This document shows positions 128 to 26,153 of a stretch of DNA of 48,586 nt, in pieces. Under the pieces are notes generated by a model. That model searched no databases. It saw only the letters and a program-made list of their open reading frames with translations, and was not told the DNA's origin. The DNA lies in the IMG/VR virus record IMGVR_UViG_3300029915_000040, one strand, 5' to 3'. Source of the stretch: a virus. The first letter of the stretch is position 1. The number at the start of each line of letters is the position of its first letter. The translations under genes and the position numbers were made by a program.

Positions 128-694
128 GGAACAGTTATTCACCACCAGCCATTGACCCACGATAGCCGGGAAATTCAGGTTCACATTGGCTGTGAGAGTT
201 CCCGACAAGCTGATGATCGGCTTCCCATACTGTGCCGCCGTCAAGGTCACATCCGATGCCGTGAGCGTTACAGGCGCGATTCCATAGGTGGTATCAGGGA
301 CCCATCCCGCCGCTGCTCCGCCGCTAGACTCTGGATCAGTCGTATTGTTGTCTACCGTGTTGAGCCAATATCCCGACCCATCCGTGCGCAGCACTCTTGC
401 GCCTTGTGGATAACCACCGACAGCAGTAGACCACACTGAATCGAACGGGAATCCGCCACCGCCGCTAAACCATACTGAAGGAGCCGTAGCGGCCTTCAGT
501 ATTCCGTTCATGTCGAGGCCGTTGGGAGGCACGCCGCCGCTGGCAATCGGCGTGCGCGTGAGTGGAGGGAAGCCGTCTGTGTACGATGCCGCTCCTGGCG
601 TAACCGAAATTTGTGATGGCACAGGAATAGTATTCGCTCCCCCTGCCTCGGCGAATGGAACGGTCAACTTCGATGGCGCGTTAGATAGCTGCAT
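1..694 (-). CDS. Tail fibre protein, N-terminal part. The gene wraps the window ends and continues from 48459 down to 48041; 370 aa in total.
   Basis: ATG at 694. My translation is MQLSNAPSKLTVPFAEAGGANTIPVPSQISVTPGAASYTDGFPPLTRTPIASGGVPPNGLDMNGILK..., matching the conserved N-terminal attachment domain of P2/Mu-type tail fibres. There is no stop before position 1, and it is in frame with track ORF 48041..48574. Confidence 0.8.
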   Translation of the reverse strand, partial: MQLSNAPSKLTVPFAEAGGANTIPVPSQISVTPGAASYTDGFPPLTRTPIASGGVPPNGLDMNGILKAATAPSVWFSGGGGFPFDSVWSTAVGGYPQGARVLRTDGSGYWLNTVDNNTTDPESSGGAAAGWVPDTTYGIAPVTLTASDVTLTAAQYGKPIISLSGTLTANVNLNFPAIVGQWLVVNNCSGAFSVTCKTLAGSGVIAPPSSPSKIYGDATNVYMSNASTAAI

Positions 695-20731: not shown

Positions 20732-23128
20732 TTACCCCCTCATTGCCATCTTCAGTACCGCGTCAGAAATATTGAGCCGGGACGTAGTGGGTGCTGCAAA
20801 AGCCATCACGAACGCATCAGCGCAATTTTTTACCAGCACTCCGTTTGCATAGTAAGCGTTATGTCGATCGAGTGTCAGGTTGTATACGGTTGCGATTATG
20901 CGCGATTGCAGAGCATTTCCTGGAGCAGAATGCGTGAATATTCCCTCTTCTCGGTTTTGGATGTCTAAACATGGTTCCACAGTTCCTGCACTCCGACTCG
21001 CAAGCGATTTTTGCTTTTGAGCTTTGGATAGCGGTTCCGCATGTGCGAGAGCAGGTCTTCGATCCTCTTGGATTTCGAGAAAGAAATGATTTTCCGCACA
21101 CGATGCACACATACTCCGTATATGGCAGACCGACTGCGACACTTCTCCCGTGTTGGCTATGCCATTCGCGTCCTTTTTCGCTGGCGTGCCAAGCCTTTGC
21201 GGCCTCTTTCGCCAACTCAAGAGATTTAGAATTTTGAACGCGATATTCTTCCGACTTGAATCGCTCCCGCATGTGCATACGGGCGTGCTCAGAAAATGGG
21301 ATGCACTCAAGGTTTTCAATCTCGTTATTGCGCCAATTGCCGTCGATGTGATGGATTGTATGGCCGTCAGGAATCTTGCCGTAATGGTCAGACCATACCC
21401 GCCGGTGTAAAAGTCGCTCATCGCCAGCGTACTTCCCGCCGTGCCTGCCTGAGCAATAGTATCGACCCGTGTTGAGAACTGCGAACACTTCGCCGCGATA
21501 AACAACTCGTTCATTATCTGCCACGTGTGCCTCCATTTATGATACGACTCTAGTATATCACATGATGAAAGCATCCGCAGTTCGCACCATCCGCGATTCC
21601 AAGTGAAAATCTTATGTGTCGGTGTCCCTGTTAGTCCGAAAGCCGAAATTACCTCCGCTTGATTTACGTGACGAACTATGATCCTAGCTGCACCCATTGG
21701 CGTAATCACTTCATCGCCTACAGATAGATTTTCGATTGGGACTGACCCGCGTGGAGTTTCAACAACGGTTCCCGCAACGAAGCAATTTGGGCTGGGCACT
21801 GGTCCACCAGGCCGCGTGCTCTTCGCCAGGTCCTCTTTGCTCTCCACCTTGACGCGCCCATTGCGGTCAAAGTCCCGCTTTGGGGTGGAAAGCTCTGTCT
21901 CCAGCTTCTCCAGATGCGGCATATCGCTTGAAATCGAGATAAGTTCATCGTCCTTGAACTTCTCACCCCGGTTGATTGCGTTGTACGTGTTGCGGAAGCG
22001 GTCGGCGATATTCCACCACGTTTGGGCCTTGAGATTGGCGAAGAAGTCCTTGTTTTTGATCTTGTCCTGCCGGTCGCTCACGTAGTACTCCTCGGGCCGC
22101 TCGACTGCCGCGCCCGCATTGAACTTGGCGTAGTTGATTCGCAGATGCTTGTCCCGCACCTGGTTCAACTCGTCAAACTTCGCACCCGCGCTTGCCCCCA
22201 CCCCGATGCAGTCGTAGCGTATCTCTGCCGCCCTCTCAGAGGCATTCAGGAACGTCCGAGAGCAGGACTTGAGCAGTTCATCTTCCTTCGCCCGCCACTC
22301 CTCGCACCAGAGTGCCACACTGCCATGGGCATAGACATTCGCGCAAGCATCCTCACCGTCGTCTGCCACATCAAAGCCGATGATCCTCCGTCCAGCAGCC
22401 TCAAAGCCAAGTTTTAGATGCGCATCGATAGCGGCCTCAATCCAACTGCGCTTGATGACCGCGCCCTCTGTATCCTCTTTGGGGTTGCCCAGGTAGATGT
22501 GCTGGTAATCCTCCTCGGACTCAGCTTTGCACGCAGCGATGACTTCAAGCATAGTCTTTGAAAGAAAAGGGTTCTCTGGATAGTTGATTTTTCTAACCAG
22601 TGTTCTTGGCGGTGGATTTAACACGAACTTTTGATAGACAAAATCCGTTGCATACCGGGGATTGAAAACAATAAATATACGCGATCCTTCTTCGCGGATG
22701 GTTGGTTCCAGAATCTCCCATTGATCCTTTGTTAAGTCTTCCGCCTCTTCAACCCAAAGTATGTCTATTCCCGATATGCCCTTTATTTCCTTCAAATTCC
22801 GCTGAATACCGAGAAAACTAAAGTATGAGCCAGTCGTTTTATGCTCAATGGTGTTCTCGGTGATATTGAATTCATCTTGGATGCCAGCGCGGTAAATGCA
22901 CTCCTCTATGACGGTTTTGACAGAATCGGTGATTCTATTCTGAAACTGCCTCACGCAGAGAAAACGAACCTTAAACTGAGAGCTTAGGAACACGCAGAAA
23001 GCGGCAGTATGATAGGTTTTGGATGATCCGCGACCGCCATACAAAACATGGTTTCTAATGCCTGGAGTCTCGTAAAATCCCCTTAGATTTGGATTAAGCA
23101 GACTCATAACGGCTCCAGGTATATCCAT
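20732..23128 (-). CDS. terL: Terminase large subunit (PBSX/Terminase_3-like) interrupted by a 320-aa intein
   Basis: Walker A motif YGGRGSSKT, Walker B-like motif ILWVEEAE, nuclease-domain motif GFDVADDG. After splicing the predicted junction reads SPN-CADAFVMAF. Confidence 0.85.
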   Translation of the reverse strand: MDIPGAVMSLLNPNLRGFYETPGIRNHVLYGGRGSSKTYHTAAFCVFLSSQFKVRFLCVRQFQNRITDSVKTVIEECIYRAGIQDEFNITENTIEHKTTGSYFSFLGIQRNLKEIKGISGIDILWVEEAEDLTKDQWEILEPTIREEGSRIFIVFNPRYATDFVYQKFVLNPPPRTLVRKINYPENPFLSKTMLEVIAACKAESEEDYQHIYLGNPKEDTEGAVIKRSWIEAAIDAHLKLGFEAAGRRIIGFDVADDGEDACANVYAHGSVALWCEEWRAKEDELLKSCSRTFLNASERAAEIRYDCIGVGASAGAKFDELNQVRDKHLRINYAKFNAGAAVERPEEYYVSDRQDKIKNKDFFANLKAQTWWNIADRFRNTYNAINRGEKFKDDELISISSDMPHLEKLETELSTPKRDFDRNGRVKVESKEDLAKSTRPGGPVPSPNCFVAGTVVETPRGSVPIENLSVGDEVITPMGAARIIVRHVNQAEVISAFGLTGTPTHKIFTWNRGWCELRMLSSCDILESYHKWRHTWQIMNELFIAAKCSQFSTRVDTIAQAGTAGSTLAMSDFYTGGYGLTITARFLTAIQSITSTAIGAITRLKTLSASHFLSTPVCTCGSDSSRKNIAFKILNLLSWRKRPQRLGTPAKKDANGIANTGEVSQSVCHIRSMCASCAENHFFLEIQEDRRPALAHAEPLSKAQKQKSLASRSAGTVEPCLDIQNREEGIFTHSAPGNALQSRIIATVYNLTLDRHNAYYANGVLVKNCADAFVMAFAAPTTSRLNISDAVLKMAMRG
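20825..21784 (-). mobile_element. Intein (Hint domain) within terL
   Basis: Starts CFVAGTVVETPRGSVPIENLSVGDEV immediately after SPN. Block B is LTGTPTHKIF. It ends VYNLTLDRHNAYYANGVLVKN, followed by a +1 Cys. Confidence 0.8.
20859..21536 (-). CDS. HNH homing endonuclease, encoded inside the intein in a different reading frame
   Basis: 225-aa ORF with its own ATG. HNH motif: HRRVWSDHYGKIPDGHTIHHIDGNWRNNEIENLECIPFSEHARMH. The C-terminus has repeated CxxC...FCSxxC zinc-finger-like units. The start coordinate is 2 mod 3, against 1 mod 3 for terL. Confidence 0.8.
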   Translation of the reverse strand: MEAHVADNERVVYRGEVFAVLNTGRYYCSGRHGGKYAGDERLLHRRVWSDHYGKIPDGHTIHHIDGNWRNNEIENLECIPFSEHARMHMRERFKSEEYRVQNSKSLELAKEAAKAWHASEKGREWHSQHGRSVAVGLPYTEYVCIVCGKSFLSRNPRGSKTCSRTCGTAIQSSKAKIACESECRNCGTMFRHPKPRRGNIHAFCSRKCSAIAHNRNRIQPDTRST

Positions 23129-23870
23129 ATGATTTCTGATGTTTTCCCACTAGCGCCATCCATACGCCGGTCCTTGTTGCCTTGGGGTACCCGTTTACAT
23201 TAAGCCATTTTGCAGCCTCGGTTATGGAAGCGAATTCGCTTCCCGTCTCGGCACAAACAACCCTGCATTTTGGCTGCGCCTCTGACATATTTATCCGAGC
23301 CTGGCCTGAACGTTTCTTACCTCTGTGCCATGAAGCTGTCTTTTCAATTGCAATGGAATCTTTGTGCAATCCGATATGTGATATGCGCATCTTTTGACGC
23401 GTCTCTAGGGTGTGATTTTGACCCATCTTTCTCGCGGATACCGCTGCACAGAATTCTTTAGACCGCTTTTGGCCACGCAACAAGGCTGTTCTTTTTTCGA
23501 TGACCTCAGCGGACTGCTTTCTTTGGAAATGGGCTTTATGTAGTCTTTCTTTCGTCTCTTCTGTGTGTCTATAGCCGGATATACCCTCCCCCCCAGACGT
23601 AAAGTTGCATAACGGGGATAGACGGGAGATCGTCTCAACTTCGATCTTAAAGGCATCCTCTTCTGTTAAATTATCAGCTATTTTCTCTGGTACAAACCCA
23701 TGCTTCTTGGATATGCGACTCCACAAAGAGTTGCGTCCCGTGGAGCAATTCATCCTTTTCCCTCTCCCTTTTCCGACATAGAATATTTCCCCTGTGTCGG
23801 CCCGACGATGGACGTACACATAAAAATCTGTAGGCAGGAGTGGAGTGAGGATAGGGGTAGCTGTACTCAT
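23094..23870 (-). CDS. Free-standing GIY-YIG homing endonuclease (NUMOD3-like repeats plus a C-terminal DNA-binding module)
   Basis: Motifs FYVYVHRRADTGEIFYVGKGRGKR...E, HTEETKERL and HTLETRQKM. C-terminal sequence FASITEAAKWL...YGYTW. It overlaps the terL start by 35 nt. Confidence 0.8.
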   Translation of the reverse strand: MSTATPILTPLLPTDFYVYVHRRADTGEIFYVGKGRGKRMNCSTGRNSLWSRISKKHGFVPEKIADNLTEEDAFKIEVETISRLSPLCNFTSGGEGISGYRHTEETKERLHKAHFQRKQSAEVIEKRTALLRGQKRSKEFCAAVSARKMGQNHTLETRQKMRISHIGLHKDSIAIEKTASWHRGKKRSGQARINMSEAQPKCRVVCAETGSEFASITEAAKWLNVNGYPKATRTGVWMALVGKHQKSYGYTWSRYESA

Positions 23871-24220
23871 TTCGCCTTACACCCCTTGAAATGATTGCCA
23901 TTGAGTGCGCCGCAATTTGGGCAACACGTTGATTTGGGTCGCGCAGTGGGAGCATTATTTGGCTCCTTCGCACCATCGTCTATGGCCGAAAGACACTGCG
24001 CAACTTTGGATCGGGGGCCTGGACTCGAACCAGAGACCTGCGGATTAGGTAGAGGGTTTCGAAGTCCCTCCGTTTTCCGCTGCTCTACCACTGAGCTACC
24101 CCCGCTGAGCCGCATGATAATCACTCGCGCTCGGCTTCGCTGCTCACGCTTTGCTTGCGCTTCTATTTCCGCAAGTAAAGGATTCGGAATCCTTAGCGAT
24201 ATGAGAGATGTATCACACAT
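23867..24220 (-). CDS. 117-codon ORF reading through the tRNA-like element (RHH-like N-terminus, Cys-motif C-terminus); coding status uncertain
   Basis: The N-terminus (LISLRIPNPLLAEIEAQAKREQRSRARVIIMRL) resembles a ribbon-helix-helix. The middle (GSSVVEQRKTEGL...) is simply the tRNA-like sequence translated. The stop overlaps the GIY-YIG ATG (ATGA). Confidence 0.3.
   Translation of the reverse strand: MCDTSLISLRIPNPLLAEIEAQAKREQRSRARVIIMRLSGGSSVVEQRKTEGLRNPLPNPQVSGSSPGPRSKVAQCLSAIDDGAKEPNNAPTARPKSTCCPNCGALNGNHFKGCKAK
24006..24104 (-). tRNA. tRNA-like gene with a 31-nt insert-bearing anticodon loop (nested hairpin presenting CUUCGAA, UCG/Arg-like); encoded CCA
   Basis: Minus-strand layout: GCGGGGG TA GCTC AGTGGTA GAGC A GCGGA [31 nt] TCCGC AGGTC TCTGG TTCGAGT CCAGG CCCCCGA T CCA. 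The D and T arms are canonical; positions 1:72 form a G-A mismatch. Confidence 0.55.
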
Positions 24221-24232
24221 GAATACATTGTA

Positions 24233-24778
24233 CTACGGTTTCTTGGCAGCGTCCGCGTAGAAGTCGCTCAGCGTGCGCACCTGGATCGGCCCGCCATCCT
24301 TGCCGGTCACTTCGGTGCGATCAGTGAACAGCTTCAGGTACTTGCCCAGCAATTCAAGGCTTGCCCGCTTATCGGTCAATTTGTACTTCTTCAGCAGGCC
24401 GTATGCGTGCTTCTGATCTCCTGTGCCTTCAAACAGTTCCACGAATTCAAAGCCTGCAACCGCCATAGCCGTTTCGTCGTCAAGCTCATGCAGTTGCTTC
24501 GGACTTCCGTCCGATTCAAACAGTTTGCGCGGATCAAAAAATGCCAGCTTTGCGATCTCTCCAAGCACTCTTTCTGCGCTAATCTCTAGTTTCGTGAACA
24601 CTTTGCCCGTTTTCTTGGCAATCTCTGCACGGACCTTAGAATTACTTAGAAGCTGCGCTCCCCAACTATCAGCTCCCTTTTCGCTGTAACCTGCTTTAAT
24701 TGCCGCACTTGTAGCATTCAGGCTCACACAATACTCCGCCACAAATCGTGCTTGCCGTGCTGTGAGACCTTCAGCCAT
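24233..24778 (-). CDS. terS: Terminase small subunit (Terminase_2-like)
   Basis: 181-aa ORF. The N-terminus (LTARQARFVAEYCVSLNATSAAIKAGYSEKGADSWGAQLLSNSKV) is the typical terS HTH region. Confidence 0.8.
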   Translation of the reverse strand: MAEGLTARQARFVAEYCVSLNATSAAIKAGYSEKGADSWGAQLLSNSKVRAEIAKKTGKVFTKLEISAERVLGEIAKLAFFDPRKLFESDGSPKQLHELDDETAMAVAGFEFVELFEGTGDQKHAYGLLKKYKLTDKRASLELLGKYLKLFTDRTEVTGKDGGPIQVRTLSDFYADAAKKP

Positions 24779-25349: not shown

Positions 25350-25406
25350 CGGCTAGTAAGAAAATGGTGCAATGCTTTGCACTAAATCGAATTCGAGGAG
25401 AATGAC

Positions 25407-26153
25407 ATGGAAATCAAGAACATTTACGATGCAGTGATTTTTTTCTCGGCAGCGTTGACCATCAAAGACGCGCTGACAGAGGCCATCAAGGCAAAAACCG
25501 ACCTGCGCGGTGCCAACCTGAGCGGTGCCTACCTGAGCGGTGCCGACCTGCGCGGTGCCGACCTGTACGGTGCCTACCTGAGCTGTGCCGACCTGAGCTG
25601 TGCCAACCTGCGCTGTGCCAACCTGAGCGGTGCCTACCTGAGCGGTGCCGACCTGCGCGGTGCCGACCTGTACGGTGCCTACCTGAGCTGTGCCGACCTG
25701 AGCTGTGCCAACCTGAGCGGTGCCGACCTGCGCGGTGCCGACCTGTACGGTGCCTACCTGAGCGGTGCCGACCTGCGCGGTGCCAACCTGAGCGGTGCCG
25801 AGGATATTCCGGCCATAGCTCTCGCGCAAATACAGTTCATCCCTACCGAGGGAGCGTTTACCGGATGGAAGAAATGCAGAAATGGCGCAATCGTAAAACT
25901 TGGCATCTCCACATCTGCCAAGCGCAGCCATGGGTCAGGGCGCAAGTGCCGATGCTCAGAAGCGAAGTGCCTCGCCATCTTTGACCGTAACGGCAACGCA
26001 ATTGCTGATGCAACCAGCGAATATGATACCTCATTTGTCTACCGTGTTGGCAAAATGGCGGGAAGCTGTCAAGCGCACTGGATACAATCTCCAACTCGCT
26101 ACCGCATCCCGTGTCCTGATGGAAATCGAAAGCCTCACTCCTCAAGCGTTTGA
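25407..26153 (+). CDS. Pentapeptide-repeat protein with an extra C-terminal domain
   Basis: About 24 consecutive A(D/N)L(S/R/Y)(G/C) pentapeptides (DLRGANLSGAYLSGADLRGADLYGAYLSCADL...). These are followed by a Lys/Cys-containing domain (FTGWKKCRNGAIVKLGI...KCRCSEAKCLAIFD). Confidence 0.8.
   Translation: MEIKNIYDAVIFFSAALTIKDALTEAIKAKTDLRGANLSGAYLSGADLRGADLYGAYLSCADLSCANLRCANLSGAYLSGADLRGADLYGAYLSCADLSCANLSGADLRGADLYGAYLSGADLRGANLSGAEDIPAIALAQIQFIPTEGAFTGWKKCRNGAIVKLGISTSAKRSHGSGRKCRCSEAKCLAIFDRNGNAIADATSEYDTSFVYRVGKMAGSCQAHWIQSPTRYRIPCPDGNRKPHSSSV
25513..25722. repeat. Near-perfect 105-bp tandem duplication (7 pentapeptide units) inside the pentapeptide gene
   Basis: The sequence ccaacctgagcggtgcctacctgagcggtgccgacctgcgcggtgccgacctgtacggtgcc... 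starts at 25513 and again at 25618. The two copies differ only near the unit ends. Confidence 0.8.

Follow-up and report, generated by a model that had tools for sequence, protein, structure and literature searches.

The window analyzed here, a stretch of 48,586 nucleotides (nt) of viral DNA (IMG/VR record IMGVR_UViG_3300029915_000040), carries on its minus strand, between the genes for the small and large terminase subunits (terS and terL), a tRNA body with 31 nt in place of the anticodon loop. This element lies within a 117-codon open reading frame (ORF). Both features had been pointed out in a preliminary description made from the sequence alone, and both are confirmed. We consider it probable that the locus encodes a functional, non-decoding RNA derived from a tRNA, with a glycine-type body and a conserved module replacing the anticodon loop, and that the same DNA is also used to encode a protein.

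The Rfam tRNA model (RF00005) aligned to positions 24010-24105 of the minus strand with 44.6 bits (E 2.3e-6; gathering score 29). All arms were placed, and no ordinary 7-nt anticodon loop was obtained: 31 nt stand at this position of the model, between the two strands of the stem. This was the sole Rfam match in the 48.6-kb window, and the sole one locally even at E <= 10. From 5' to 3', the RNA (24007-24105) reads GCGGGGG UA GCUC AGUGGUA GAGC A GCGGA, then the 31-nt module, and then UCCGC AGGUC UCUGG UUCGAGU CCAGG CCCCCGA U CCA. The cloverleaf is complete, with a 7-bp acceptor (GCGGGGG/CCCCCGA), a D arm (GCUC-AGUGGUA-GAGC), a 5-bp anticodon stem, the variable loop AGGUC and a 5-bp T arm (UCUGG-UUCGAGU-CCAGG) with a consensus T loop; its sole non-pair is G1.A72 in the acceptor. 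Each arm of the fold drawn by hand in the preliminary description agrees with the sequence and with the Rfam alignment, and its coordinates (24006-24104, and 24044..24074 for the 31 nt) need to be shifted by one base, to 24007-24105 and 24045-24075. The minimum free energy fold of the whole RNA (-40.9 kcal/mol, z -2.27) recovered the additional hairpin along with the stems of the acceptor, D and anticodon arms, and missed the T arm.

The module prolongs the anticodon arm by an A-rich asymmetric internal loop (5' AAAS, 3' ACCUAA), a 6-bp helix opened by a G.U pair and an apical loop of 8-9 nt ending in WUCGAAA. Compared to a normal 7-nt loop, 22-24 nt are added, which makes the arm longer by about six base pairs (bp) and one internal loop. 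Folded alone, the extended arm reached -11.3 kcal/mol (z -2.2). Several known motifs were considered by reading the sequences and dropped: a k-turn (the loops are without G), a UAA/GAN motif and an 11-nt GAAA-tetraloop receptor (the strand partners misfit in some of the three variants described below) and a hammerhead core (CUGAUGA is absent from the sequences read). An attP site was also dropped, as the full tRNA is present and no integrase was recognised in the window.

Further variants of the extended element were found by exact-pattern scans of IMG/VR, which brings the total to three: the window, a type that is identical in four contigs (L094, L097, L099 and L112) and a type found in two (L273 and L274). 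The L094 type reads GCGGGGAUAGCUCAGGGGUAGAGCA GCGGA AAA GUCCGG CAUCGAAA CCGGAU ACCUAA in its 5' part and UCCGC AGGUG AAUGG UUCGAGU CCUUU UCCCCGC U CCA in its 3' part; it scored 48 bits with the Rfam tRNA model, with 29 nt at the loop position. The L273/L274 type reads GCGGGGUUAGCUCAGUUGGUAGAGCA UCAGA AAAC GGCAGG CUAUCGAAA CCUGCU ACCUAA, followed by UCUGA AGGUC GUUCG UUCGAGU CGAAC GCCCCGC U CCA. The unpaired segments AAA, ACCUAA and (A/U)UCGAAA are invariant in the three variants. In the extension helix all 18 cells (six pairs in three variants) are paired. Pair 1 is always G.U, and three of the six pairs are changed on both sides, namely pair 2 (G-C, U-A and G-C in the window, L094 and L273 types, respectively), pair 3 (A-U, C-G, C-G) and pair 4 (G-C, C-G, A-U). 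The anticodon stem covaries as well, from GCGGA/UCCGC to UCAGA/UCUGA in L273/L274, and so do the T stem and the acceptor pair 7:66 among the three variants.

A covariance model (R1) was built from the three variants. Its members scored between 108 and 120 bits (119.6 bits for the window element) and ordinary tRNAs at most 65 bits; over 93 loci, no member was found beyond the three variants. Pair counts on the model-made alignment, which includes unrelated expansions too, concur with those given above. The first exact arm pattern gave no match in IMG/VR, and two looser patterns, in which the D arm or the internal-loop sequence was not required, returned nothing from IMG/VR beyond the L094 and L273 types. 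When genome contigs were scanned for CGGAAAA-N-ACCTAATCCG, none of the matches listed had a tRNA context. A profile of the peptide encoded in frame by the element gave no match in a collection of 5.8 billion proteins. One close relative of the ORF product, the 295-amino-acid P0127 (ENA ERZ1426817, known only as a protein), has a T5orf172/MUG113 nuclease domain inserted after its ribbon-helix-helix domain and contains SSVVEQRKTDVGIHLPNPQVSGSSPDPRSRVAQCLSAIDDGAKEPNNA, which is near-identical to the window element and its flank, with a different extension that is shorter by one codon. When back-translated, this extension permits a 6-bp helix (GGAUGU/ACAUCU) and rules out the UCGAAA apical loop.

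The genomic contexts of the three variants are quite different. The L094 element is intergenic, with stops in all three frames, and is flanked by a RecT-type recombinase region on one side and a KTSC/HTH region on the other (exonuclease/RecT/KTSC/HTH). The L274 element is a free-standing gene beside a MuF/portal module located on the opposite strand; this phage also possesses a separate ribbon-helix-helix (RHH) protein with the motif HAPGCKCLMC (RHH_1, 5.6e-6) without a tRNA inside. The carrier contigs of the two other variants have almost no genes in common with the window. The extension is thus a conserved structured module, autonomous from its genomic context. Conserved loops, covarying helices and this autonomy together point to a functional structured RNA.

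For the same reasons, it is highly improbable that the element is a decaying tRNA gene, a neutral insertion or a scar of endonuclease homing, tolerated because only the reading frame matters. The decay and homing readings had been put forward in the preliminary description, and several features do fit them: the G1.A72 mismatch of the window copy, the length of the insert (24 nt, a multiple of three), the adjoining homing endonuclease gene and the loss of the tRNA in other relatives. However, in phages with hardly any genes in common the helix covaries and the loops are invariant, two of the three variants lie outside any ORF, and the remaining arms are all intact. Moreover, the many compensatory differences between the L094 and L273 types argue against recent copies of one source.

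In the window, the element is nested in frame in the 117-codon ORF, which was present in the ORF list as the preliminary description had stated, with a TGA stop overlapping the ATG of the next ORF (ATGA). An AlphaFold model from a 15-sequence family alignment gave high per-residue confidence (pLDDT 86-96) for residues 1-40, with helices at 13-26 and 30-39, and low confidence for the rest. The ORF has a weak match to an Arc-like PHROG (E 8e-4) and no Pfam match at E <= 0.01, and RHH_1 is precomputed for its relatives P0010 and P0014. The N-terminus therefore fits an RHH fold according to the model, as the preliminary description had supposed. The RNA gene begins with codon 39, just where the folded domain ends, and its coding part falls within the low-confidence, predicted disordered linker.

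The C-terminal tail is under purifying selection. Between the window and L081, 21 codons of the tail differ by nine synonymous and no non-synonymous changes; between the window and L086, 18 codons show ten synonymous and four non-synonymous differences (pN/pS, the ratio of non-synonymous to synonymous differences per site, 0.10). For the RHH domain, pN/pS between the window and L086 is 0.2. The Cys/His motif of the tail recurs in P0009, P0010, P0013, P0019, P0025 and P0034. No in-frame ATG, GTG or TTG is found in the sequence between the tRNA and the tail, and for this reason ribosomes must read through the RNA gene to reach the selected tail. The ORF, which had been called translated-looking, is thus indeed translated through the RNA gene. 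From one DNA stretch a protein and an RNA would be made, encoded in frame on the same strand.

Homologous ORFs were found after terS, with a stop overlapping the start of terL, in contigs from IMG/VR, Logan, ENA and JGI. Common to them are the RHH domain and a short Cys/His tail (CPxCGALNGxHxKxC, HxxxCxCxxC or GYWCxxCRRMY). A profile search of all against all gathered 472 clusters of this family at E <= 1e-3, and a metagenome scan with the ORF profile gave L088 among the matches listed. The closest relative, L086, has at the same codons an ordinary tRNA-Gly(UCC) without any insert, and other relatives carry canonical tRNAs for threonine or methionine (Table 1). In L012 and L013, the anticodon loop is gone from an otherwise recognizable tRNA body. 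In L089 and L290, a glycine-type body has an 8-nt loop; the first 29 nt of L089 are exactly those of the window element. The RNAs of L089 and L290 are identical at 74 of 75 nt and the surrounding proteins fall in different 50%-identity clusters, so that the RNA is more conserved than the protein that contains it. A different insert occupies the anticodon arm of L090 and L289; 24 of its 27 nt are identical between diverged ORFs and no difference is synonymous, which suggests a constraint at the nucleotide level. The acceptor stem of L289 is degenerate. Finally, L092 holds a circularly permuted tRNA-like element, which matches the Rfam YrlA family with 40.8 bits (E 2e-6), under the gathering score of 69. 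No tRNA was detectable in the linkers of L003/4 and L006-9, nor any unusual folding in that of L006, and peptide signatures running from D arm to T arm were present in 11 of 158 family representatives. The slot thus hosts many kinds of tRNA-derived RNA, whose bodies are maintained and whose anticodon loops often are not; the anticodon is dispensable there.

In view of these relatives, it is scarcely credible that the locus is protein-coding only, with an incidental likeness to tRNA. The ORF is conserved and translated, as this explanation would have it. However, the Rfam score lies 15 bits over the gathering score in spite of the insert, canonical tRNAs of 66-69 bits stand at the same codons in relatives, the RNA part is better conserved than the surrounding protein in L089/L290, and the encoded peptide is predicted to be disordered.

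The constancy of the slot, always between terS and terL, together with the variable identity of the tRNA (glycine, threonine, methionine, remodelled, permuted), could also reflect a signal acting in cis in the packaging mRNA. As in tRNA punctuation, terL would then be split off by an RNase P cut from what lies upstream, or this cut would determine how much full-length RHH protein is made relative to processed transcript, and the released RNA would be functionless. Translation and processing must indeed interact, given the ATGA overlap in the window and in relatives, and an anticodon that can be dispensed with is also what such a signal would predict. We nevertheless regard this possibility as unlikely: the same extended element is free-standing in L094 and L274, in quite different contexts, a processing signal would not require conserved loops in the extension, and a tRNA is missing from the linker of many family members (no detection in L003 and L006; signature in 11/158).

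The permuted element of L092 raises another question, whether the window RNA might be an unpermuted equivalent of YrlA, that is, a Y-RNA-like molecule whose tRNA-like domain and stem would bind a host Ro60 orthologue (Rsr) and recruit or block the Rsr/PNPase RNA-decay machine. The L092 match comes from the same slot. The "anticodon stem" of YrlA extends into a long helix, and YrlA RNAs occur in phages, one of them being cut by RNase P and CCA-tailed (PMC4201824). In addition, NCGAA is common to the apical WUCGAAAC and to GNCGAAN0-1G, the proposed Rsr motif. However, both flanking G of this motif are missing, and the motif is in a loop and not near the 5' end. The L092 match itself remains under its gathering score, and no YrlA or Y_RNA match was found in window positions 23850-24260 at E <= 10. 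YrlA genes lie less than 4 kb from Ro60 (PMC4201824), and no TROVE/Ro60 gene is found among the 65 ORFs of the window that were scanned. Altogether, this makes a Y-RNA-like role very unlikely.

The identity of the tRNA body was deduced from its acceptor. The elements C2:G71, G3:C70 and U73 are present in the window, L094, L273, L086 and L089. The latter four also have G1:C72, where the window has G1.A72. The identity elements for E. coli GlyRS are U73, G1:C72, C2:G71, G3:C70, C35 and C36, and those of tRNA-Arg are A20, C35 and A/G73. Given C2:G71, G3:C70 and U73, and the tRNA-Gly(UCC) with the same anticodon stem at the homologous locus of L086, the body of the window RNA is of glycine type and not of arginine type. 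The preliminary description had proposed a tRNA-Arg, and tests for this identity were negative: the discriminator is U73, the D loop AGUGGUA is without A20, and the UCG and CCU triplets fall outside any 7-nt loop. Its other argument, an apex with U33 around the arginine anticodon UCG, is true of the window copy alone (CU-UCG-AA). The other variants read A-UCG-AAA; U-CGA-AA is found in all three, and WUCGAAA is the form in common.

By its spacing from the stem, the triplet at the anticodon position would be CCU. The 3' strand of the internal loop, which immediately precedes the 3' strand of the anticodon stem, contains a CC dinucleotide, and together with the last two bases of the helix (CU-ACC-UAA) it resembles the ancestral glycine loop CUUCCAG, with CC kept. 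Codon usage for arginine, glycine and serine was uninformative. The stem strands are 31 nt apart, U33 is not regained by cutting out any contiguous block, and normal decoding is most probably not to be expected of this RNA.

Removal of the additional sequence as a new kind of short intron, a possibility raised in the preliminary description, would offer another way to a decoding loop. The hairpin and part of the internal loop would be excised by an endonuclease and a ligase, or by self-cleavage followed by RtcB-type ligation, leaving a 7-8-nt loop from UACCUAA, whose anticodon would be CCU (Arg) if judged by spacing, or ACC (Gly) if one A were supernumerary. ARAGORN gave zero tRNA calls in the window with default settings. 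Run with introns, it called a tRNA-Arg(CCU) with a 24-nt intron at 30/31, treated the L094 variants alike and read L273/L274 as a tRNA-Ser(GCU) with a 21-nt insert at the same position. The intron reading also agrees with the invariance of ACCUAA, since the final 7 nt of the module are UACCUAA in the three variants, as those of a mature anticodon loop would be, and with the short inserts that some clustered tRNAs on other large viral contigs carry in or close to the anticodon (L095 at 33/34, L107 at 37/38). However, the residual loop of the ARAGORN call, UACCUAA, has A33 and not U33, and U33 is not obtained for any x when the first x nucleotides are joined to the last 7-x.

In line with the preliminary description, no known intron type was found to fit. 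The 4-nt and 6-nt unpaired strands lie opposite one another in a single internal loop, with a 6-bp helix after it. This is not a bulge-helix-bulge, in which a 4-bp helix stands between two 3-nt bulges of opposite strands. An insert of 22-24 nt is far from the ~200 nt or more of a group I intron with its P1-P9 core, cannot be a group II intron either, and gave zero match to Rfam introns; removal of a 37/38 intron does not leave U33. Moreover, no splicing endonuclease or RNA ligase gene was recognisable in the window, the apical UCGAAA and the 5' AAA are invariant too, which a passive intron would not need, and the acceptor identity (Gly) disagrees with the anticodon consistent with spacing (Arg). 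Such a pre-tRNA is thus quite unlikely.

Other departures from the tRNA fold were seen on viral contigs. In L095:6313-6414 and L110:709-809, a tRNA-Ile(GAU)-like gene in a viral tRNA cluster has a 26-nt insert between 33 and 34, and in L107:7176-7284, on a 490-kb contig, a 33-nt insert at 37/38 pairs with the anticodon. These inserts are unrelated in sequence to the window module. At L283 (~600-690), acceptor, D and T arms are present, but about 10 nt stand in place of the anticodon arm and variable loop.

We return to the interpretation that the locus encodes a functional, non-decoding RNA. In this scheme, a transcript shared with the packaging genes would contain the RNA; RNase P cleavage at G24105 and trimming of the 3' end to the encoded CCA would release a stable L-shaped RNA of ~99 nt. 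As the processed transcript could not be translated to its end, RNA processing and full-length translation would be mutually exclusive for any one transcript. The anticodon arm, with its internal loop and six additional bp, would be too long for decoding by the ribosome, which is why we regard the window RNA as non-decoding. Features for tRNA-processing enzymes, and perhaps for GlyRS, would nevertheless be kept (acceptor identity pairs, U73 and CC next to the anticodon stem). The RNA would then act in trans, as a tRNA mimic occupying some tRNA-binding factor. The tRNA-like modules of Y RNAs are cleaved by RNase P and acquire CCA (PMC4201824), and tRNAs are frequent targets of bacterial immunity, which phage tRNAs can counter (PMC10264068, PMC11555353, PMC12851939). 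From this context, our leading guess for the function is a decoy of, or competitor for, a host tRNA-targeting defence or toxin, which should be taken as speculative. It also agrees with an anticodon that the slot can do without. The three variants might, more generally and still tentatively, represent a class of glycine-type long-arm phage tRNA mimics, processed like tRNAs, possibly charged, non-decoding, and serving as decoys or adaptors for a host tRNA-binding machine (defence nuclease, toxin or RNA-decay complex), with dual coding in one lineage.

Several points weigh against this interpretation. No Ro60/TROVE, RNA ligase, aminoacyl-tRNA synthetase (aaRS) or nuclease-inhibitor partner gene is recognisable by Pfam in the window. 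The invariance of ACCUAA in the three variants would also be expected of a conserved mature anticodon loop, and the extension of P0127 suggests that the apical motif may be non-essential. With three variants only, the covariation rests on few events. Finally, G1.A72, absent from the other two variants, could weaken charging or mark an early stage of decay.

Table 1. Coordinates of the tRNA-like gene, its module, the surrounding window features and the elements found in related loci.
Feature	Position	Strand	Description	Basis
tRNA-like RNA gene	24007..24105	-	99 nt including encoded CCA (24007-24009); discriminator U (24010)	Rfam tRNA, own covariance model R1, direct reading
Whole extended anticodon arm	24040..24080	-	stem GCGGA (24076-24080) / UCCGC (24040-24044) around the module	stem covaries in L273/L274
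Module in place of anticodon loop	24045..24075	-		folding; same architecture in L094 and L273/L274 variants
Module, 5' internal-loop strand	24072-24075	-	AAAC	
Module, helix 5' strand	24066-24071	-	GGAGGG	
Module, apical loop	24057-24065	-	ACUUCGAAA	
Module, helix 3' strand	24051-24056	-	CCCUCU	
Module, 3' internal-loop strand	24045-24050	-	ACCUAA	
117-codon ORF	23867..24220	-	predicted RHH domain, predicted disordered linker, Cys/His tail; holds the RNA gene in frame, codons ~39-72	homologues in L081, L086, P0001-P0019
Predicted RHH domain coding part	24101..24220	-	residues 1-40	AlphaFold, Arc-like PHROG, RHH_1 in relatives
C-terminal tail	23870..23923	-	CPNCGALNGNHFKGCKAK, C-x2-C-x7-H-x3-C	zinc-knuckle-like by sequence pattern only
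Candidate -10 region	24221..24232	-	TACAAT (24227-24232) and 6-nt spacer before ATG	between terS stop and ORF start
Terminase small subunit	24233..24778	-	upstream neighbour	Pfam Terminase_2, 1e-32
Free-standing homing endonuclease	23094..23870	-	start overlaps ORF stop (ATGA)	Pfam NUMOD3; PHROG 314, 6e-18
Terminase large subunit with intein	20732..23128	-	downstream neighbour	Pfam Terminase_3, 1e-37; Hint_2, 4e-10
tRNA-Gly(UCC)	L086/L087		ORF 76% identical to that of the window; loop CUUCCAG, anticodon stem GCGG/CCGC as in window, U73, CCA; same codons	66 bits
tRNA-Thr(UGU)	L081 linker			66.5 bits
tRNA-Met(CAU)	L010/11		zinc-ribbon domain in place of RHH	69.1 bits
tRNA body without anticodon loop	L012:683-767, L013:4682-4766		in zinc-ribbon-type small ORF; arm closed by 4-bp helix, GGUU loop, 3-nt bulge	
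Gly-type body with 8-nt loop	L089:3128-3202, L290:912-986		4-bp anticodon stem, loop C(C/A)ACCAGU	
Different anticodon-arm insert	L090:582-680, L289:~480-580		27 nt, AGGGACGCACCRGAASAAAGCGGGCGA	
Circularly permuted tRNA-like	L092:1093-1201 (ENA ERZ18630589; P0012)		T arm, capped acceptor, D arm	

The window is otherwise myovirus-like, with a DUF3383 sheath, baseplate proteins, a portal, ERF and a ParB-HTH protein; the portal is ~50% identical to those of the nearest isolated phages, which are Pseudomonas and Aeromonas myoviruses. In one phage, Amjad_SA, terL directly follows terS and the small ORF is absent. Pfam scans of 65 window ORFs did not reveal any Ro60/TROVE, integrase, RNA ligase or aaRS-like gene. 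The gene downstream of the small ORF, described earlier as a GIY-YIG endonuclease, is indeed a homing endonuclease by its PHROG 314 and NUMOD3 matches, and the motif YVYVHR...GEIFYVGKG is visible; the family assignment itself was not recovered, with no Pfam GIY-YIG match at E <= 0.01. Within terL, in a different frame, an ORF of 225 amino acids (20859-21536, minus strand) encodes an HNH endonuclease (HNH_3, 3e-16; PHROG 15471, 2e-29).

In L006:962-1537 (P0002), P0003, P0008, P0011 and P0029, the RHH ORF is fused in frame with a nuclease domain of GIY-YIG or related type, which lies either upstream of the RHH ORF or between the RHH domain and the tRNA; in the window, the nuclease is a separate downstream gene. 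The terS-terL slot is a hotspot for homing endonucleases. Overlapping frames were also seen in relatives: in L001:3395-3806, L014:4529-4930 and L088:101-500, a small domain, of zinc-ribbon or RHH type, is followed by two long stop-free frames that overlap over 300-400 nt. A zinc-finger protein with PPCPxC...RCxPCGVNW is encoded by the second of these frames, and the first ends in WC(S/A)TC in L014 and L088. This overlap may be due to chance in GC-rich DNA or to dual coding.

Upstream of the small ORF, a -10-like hexamer lies 6-7 nt before the start, and a Shine-Dalgarno sequence is absent. The TACAAT-type arrangement of the window recurs in at least nine relatives, among them L001, L003, L010, L012, L014, L086, L090 and L092, with TATAAT, TACGAT or TACTAT in some relatives. 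In the window, TACAAT forms part of the near-palindrome ATACAATGTAT. It may be the -10 box of a leaderless-type promoter, or an operator for the RHH protein. Scans for sigma-70 promoters and terminators around the locus remained at background level and did not call TACAAT. Further upstream, a pentapeptide-repeat protein is encoded on the plus strand (25407-26153; Pfam Pentapeptide, 1e-35), and the long GTAQV-repeat ORF opposite to it (25353-25931, minus strand) is most probably an artefact of the repeats.

The anticodon arm of tRNAs is among the most length-invariant structures, and a conserved and covarying extension of 22-24 nt on a tRNA body that is perfect in other respects points to selection for something beyond decoding. 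The extension has spread to phages with hardly any genes in common, and it comes to light while immunity directed at tRNAs, and phage countermeasures to it, are emerging in many systems. A structured RNA gene on the same strand and in frame within a demonstrably translated gene would be a rare and clean case of dual coding. The series of elements in the slot, from canonical through remodelled to permuted and Y-RNA-like, provides natural material on which the capture, remodelling and loss of tRNA genes can be studied. Such elements are likely under-counted, because default tRNA finders miss them and gene callers annotate only the ORF.

Rfam 15 contains no family for the element besides the generic tRNA model. 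Using blastn, 2 kb around the locus gave no match in INPHARED, and queries with the element or the arm alone brought up no homologue with the extension from isolated phages or plasmids. Full-text searches did not turn up any account of such an arm, nor of translated phage genes with a tRNA gene nested in frame.

The window RNA resembles canonical phage tRNAs (RF00005; the tRNA-Gly(UCC) of L086) in its acceptor, D and T arms, U8, A14, G18G19, T loop UUCGAGU, U73, CCA and, for L086, its slot, but has a structured 31-nt module where these have a 7-nt loop with U33. Natural tRNAs that depart from the rule of a 5-bp stem and a 7-nt loop keep the L-shaped body as well; a review of non-canonical tRNAs reports at most one extra pair in the anticodon stem or small breaks (PMC7609411). 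With one extra pair, small breaks or one extra loop base, those tRNAs still decode, whereas the window RNA has 22-24 nt more. In intron-containing tRNA genes (archaeal and eukaryal with bulge-helix-bulge, bacterial with group I introns), the extra sequence is also in the anticodon-loop region, but the window insert is not at 37/38, leaves no U33 after simple excision and has "intron" loops conserved in sequence. YrlA and other bacterial Y RNAs (RF02553; PMC4201824) share with it a tRNA-like domain and an arm continuing into a longer helix with internal loops, as well as occurrence in phages, recognition as substrates by tRNA enzymes and a lack of decoding. However, YrlA is permuted, with its ends in the long stem and a capped acceptor, and its gene lies next to Ro60; the window RNA is capped at its arm and ends like a normal tRNA.

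The nearest precedent for the nesting of tRNA-derived sequence in frame within a translated phage gene is found in mycobacteriophages. In cluster N-type phages, attP cores lie inside the repressor genes, as part of integration-dependent immunity, and contain the 3' part of a host tRNA only. Positions 59-87 of the window tRNA are 93% identical to phage immunity repressor genes of INPHARED (H8-H30, e.g. Mycobacterium phages Charlie and Xeno), a match that is probably to their tRNA-derived attP core. These cores are partial tRNAs used as recombination sites, whereas the window holds a complete and maintained tRNA-like gene and no recognisable integrase. Finally, the phage tRNAs that counter host defence (PMC10264068, PMC11555353) also depart from the host version in the anticodon-loop region, which offers a plausible setting for selection. 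They decode and carry point changes in the loop, whereas the window RNA would act as a mimic or decoy.

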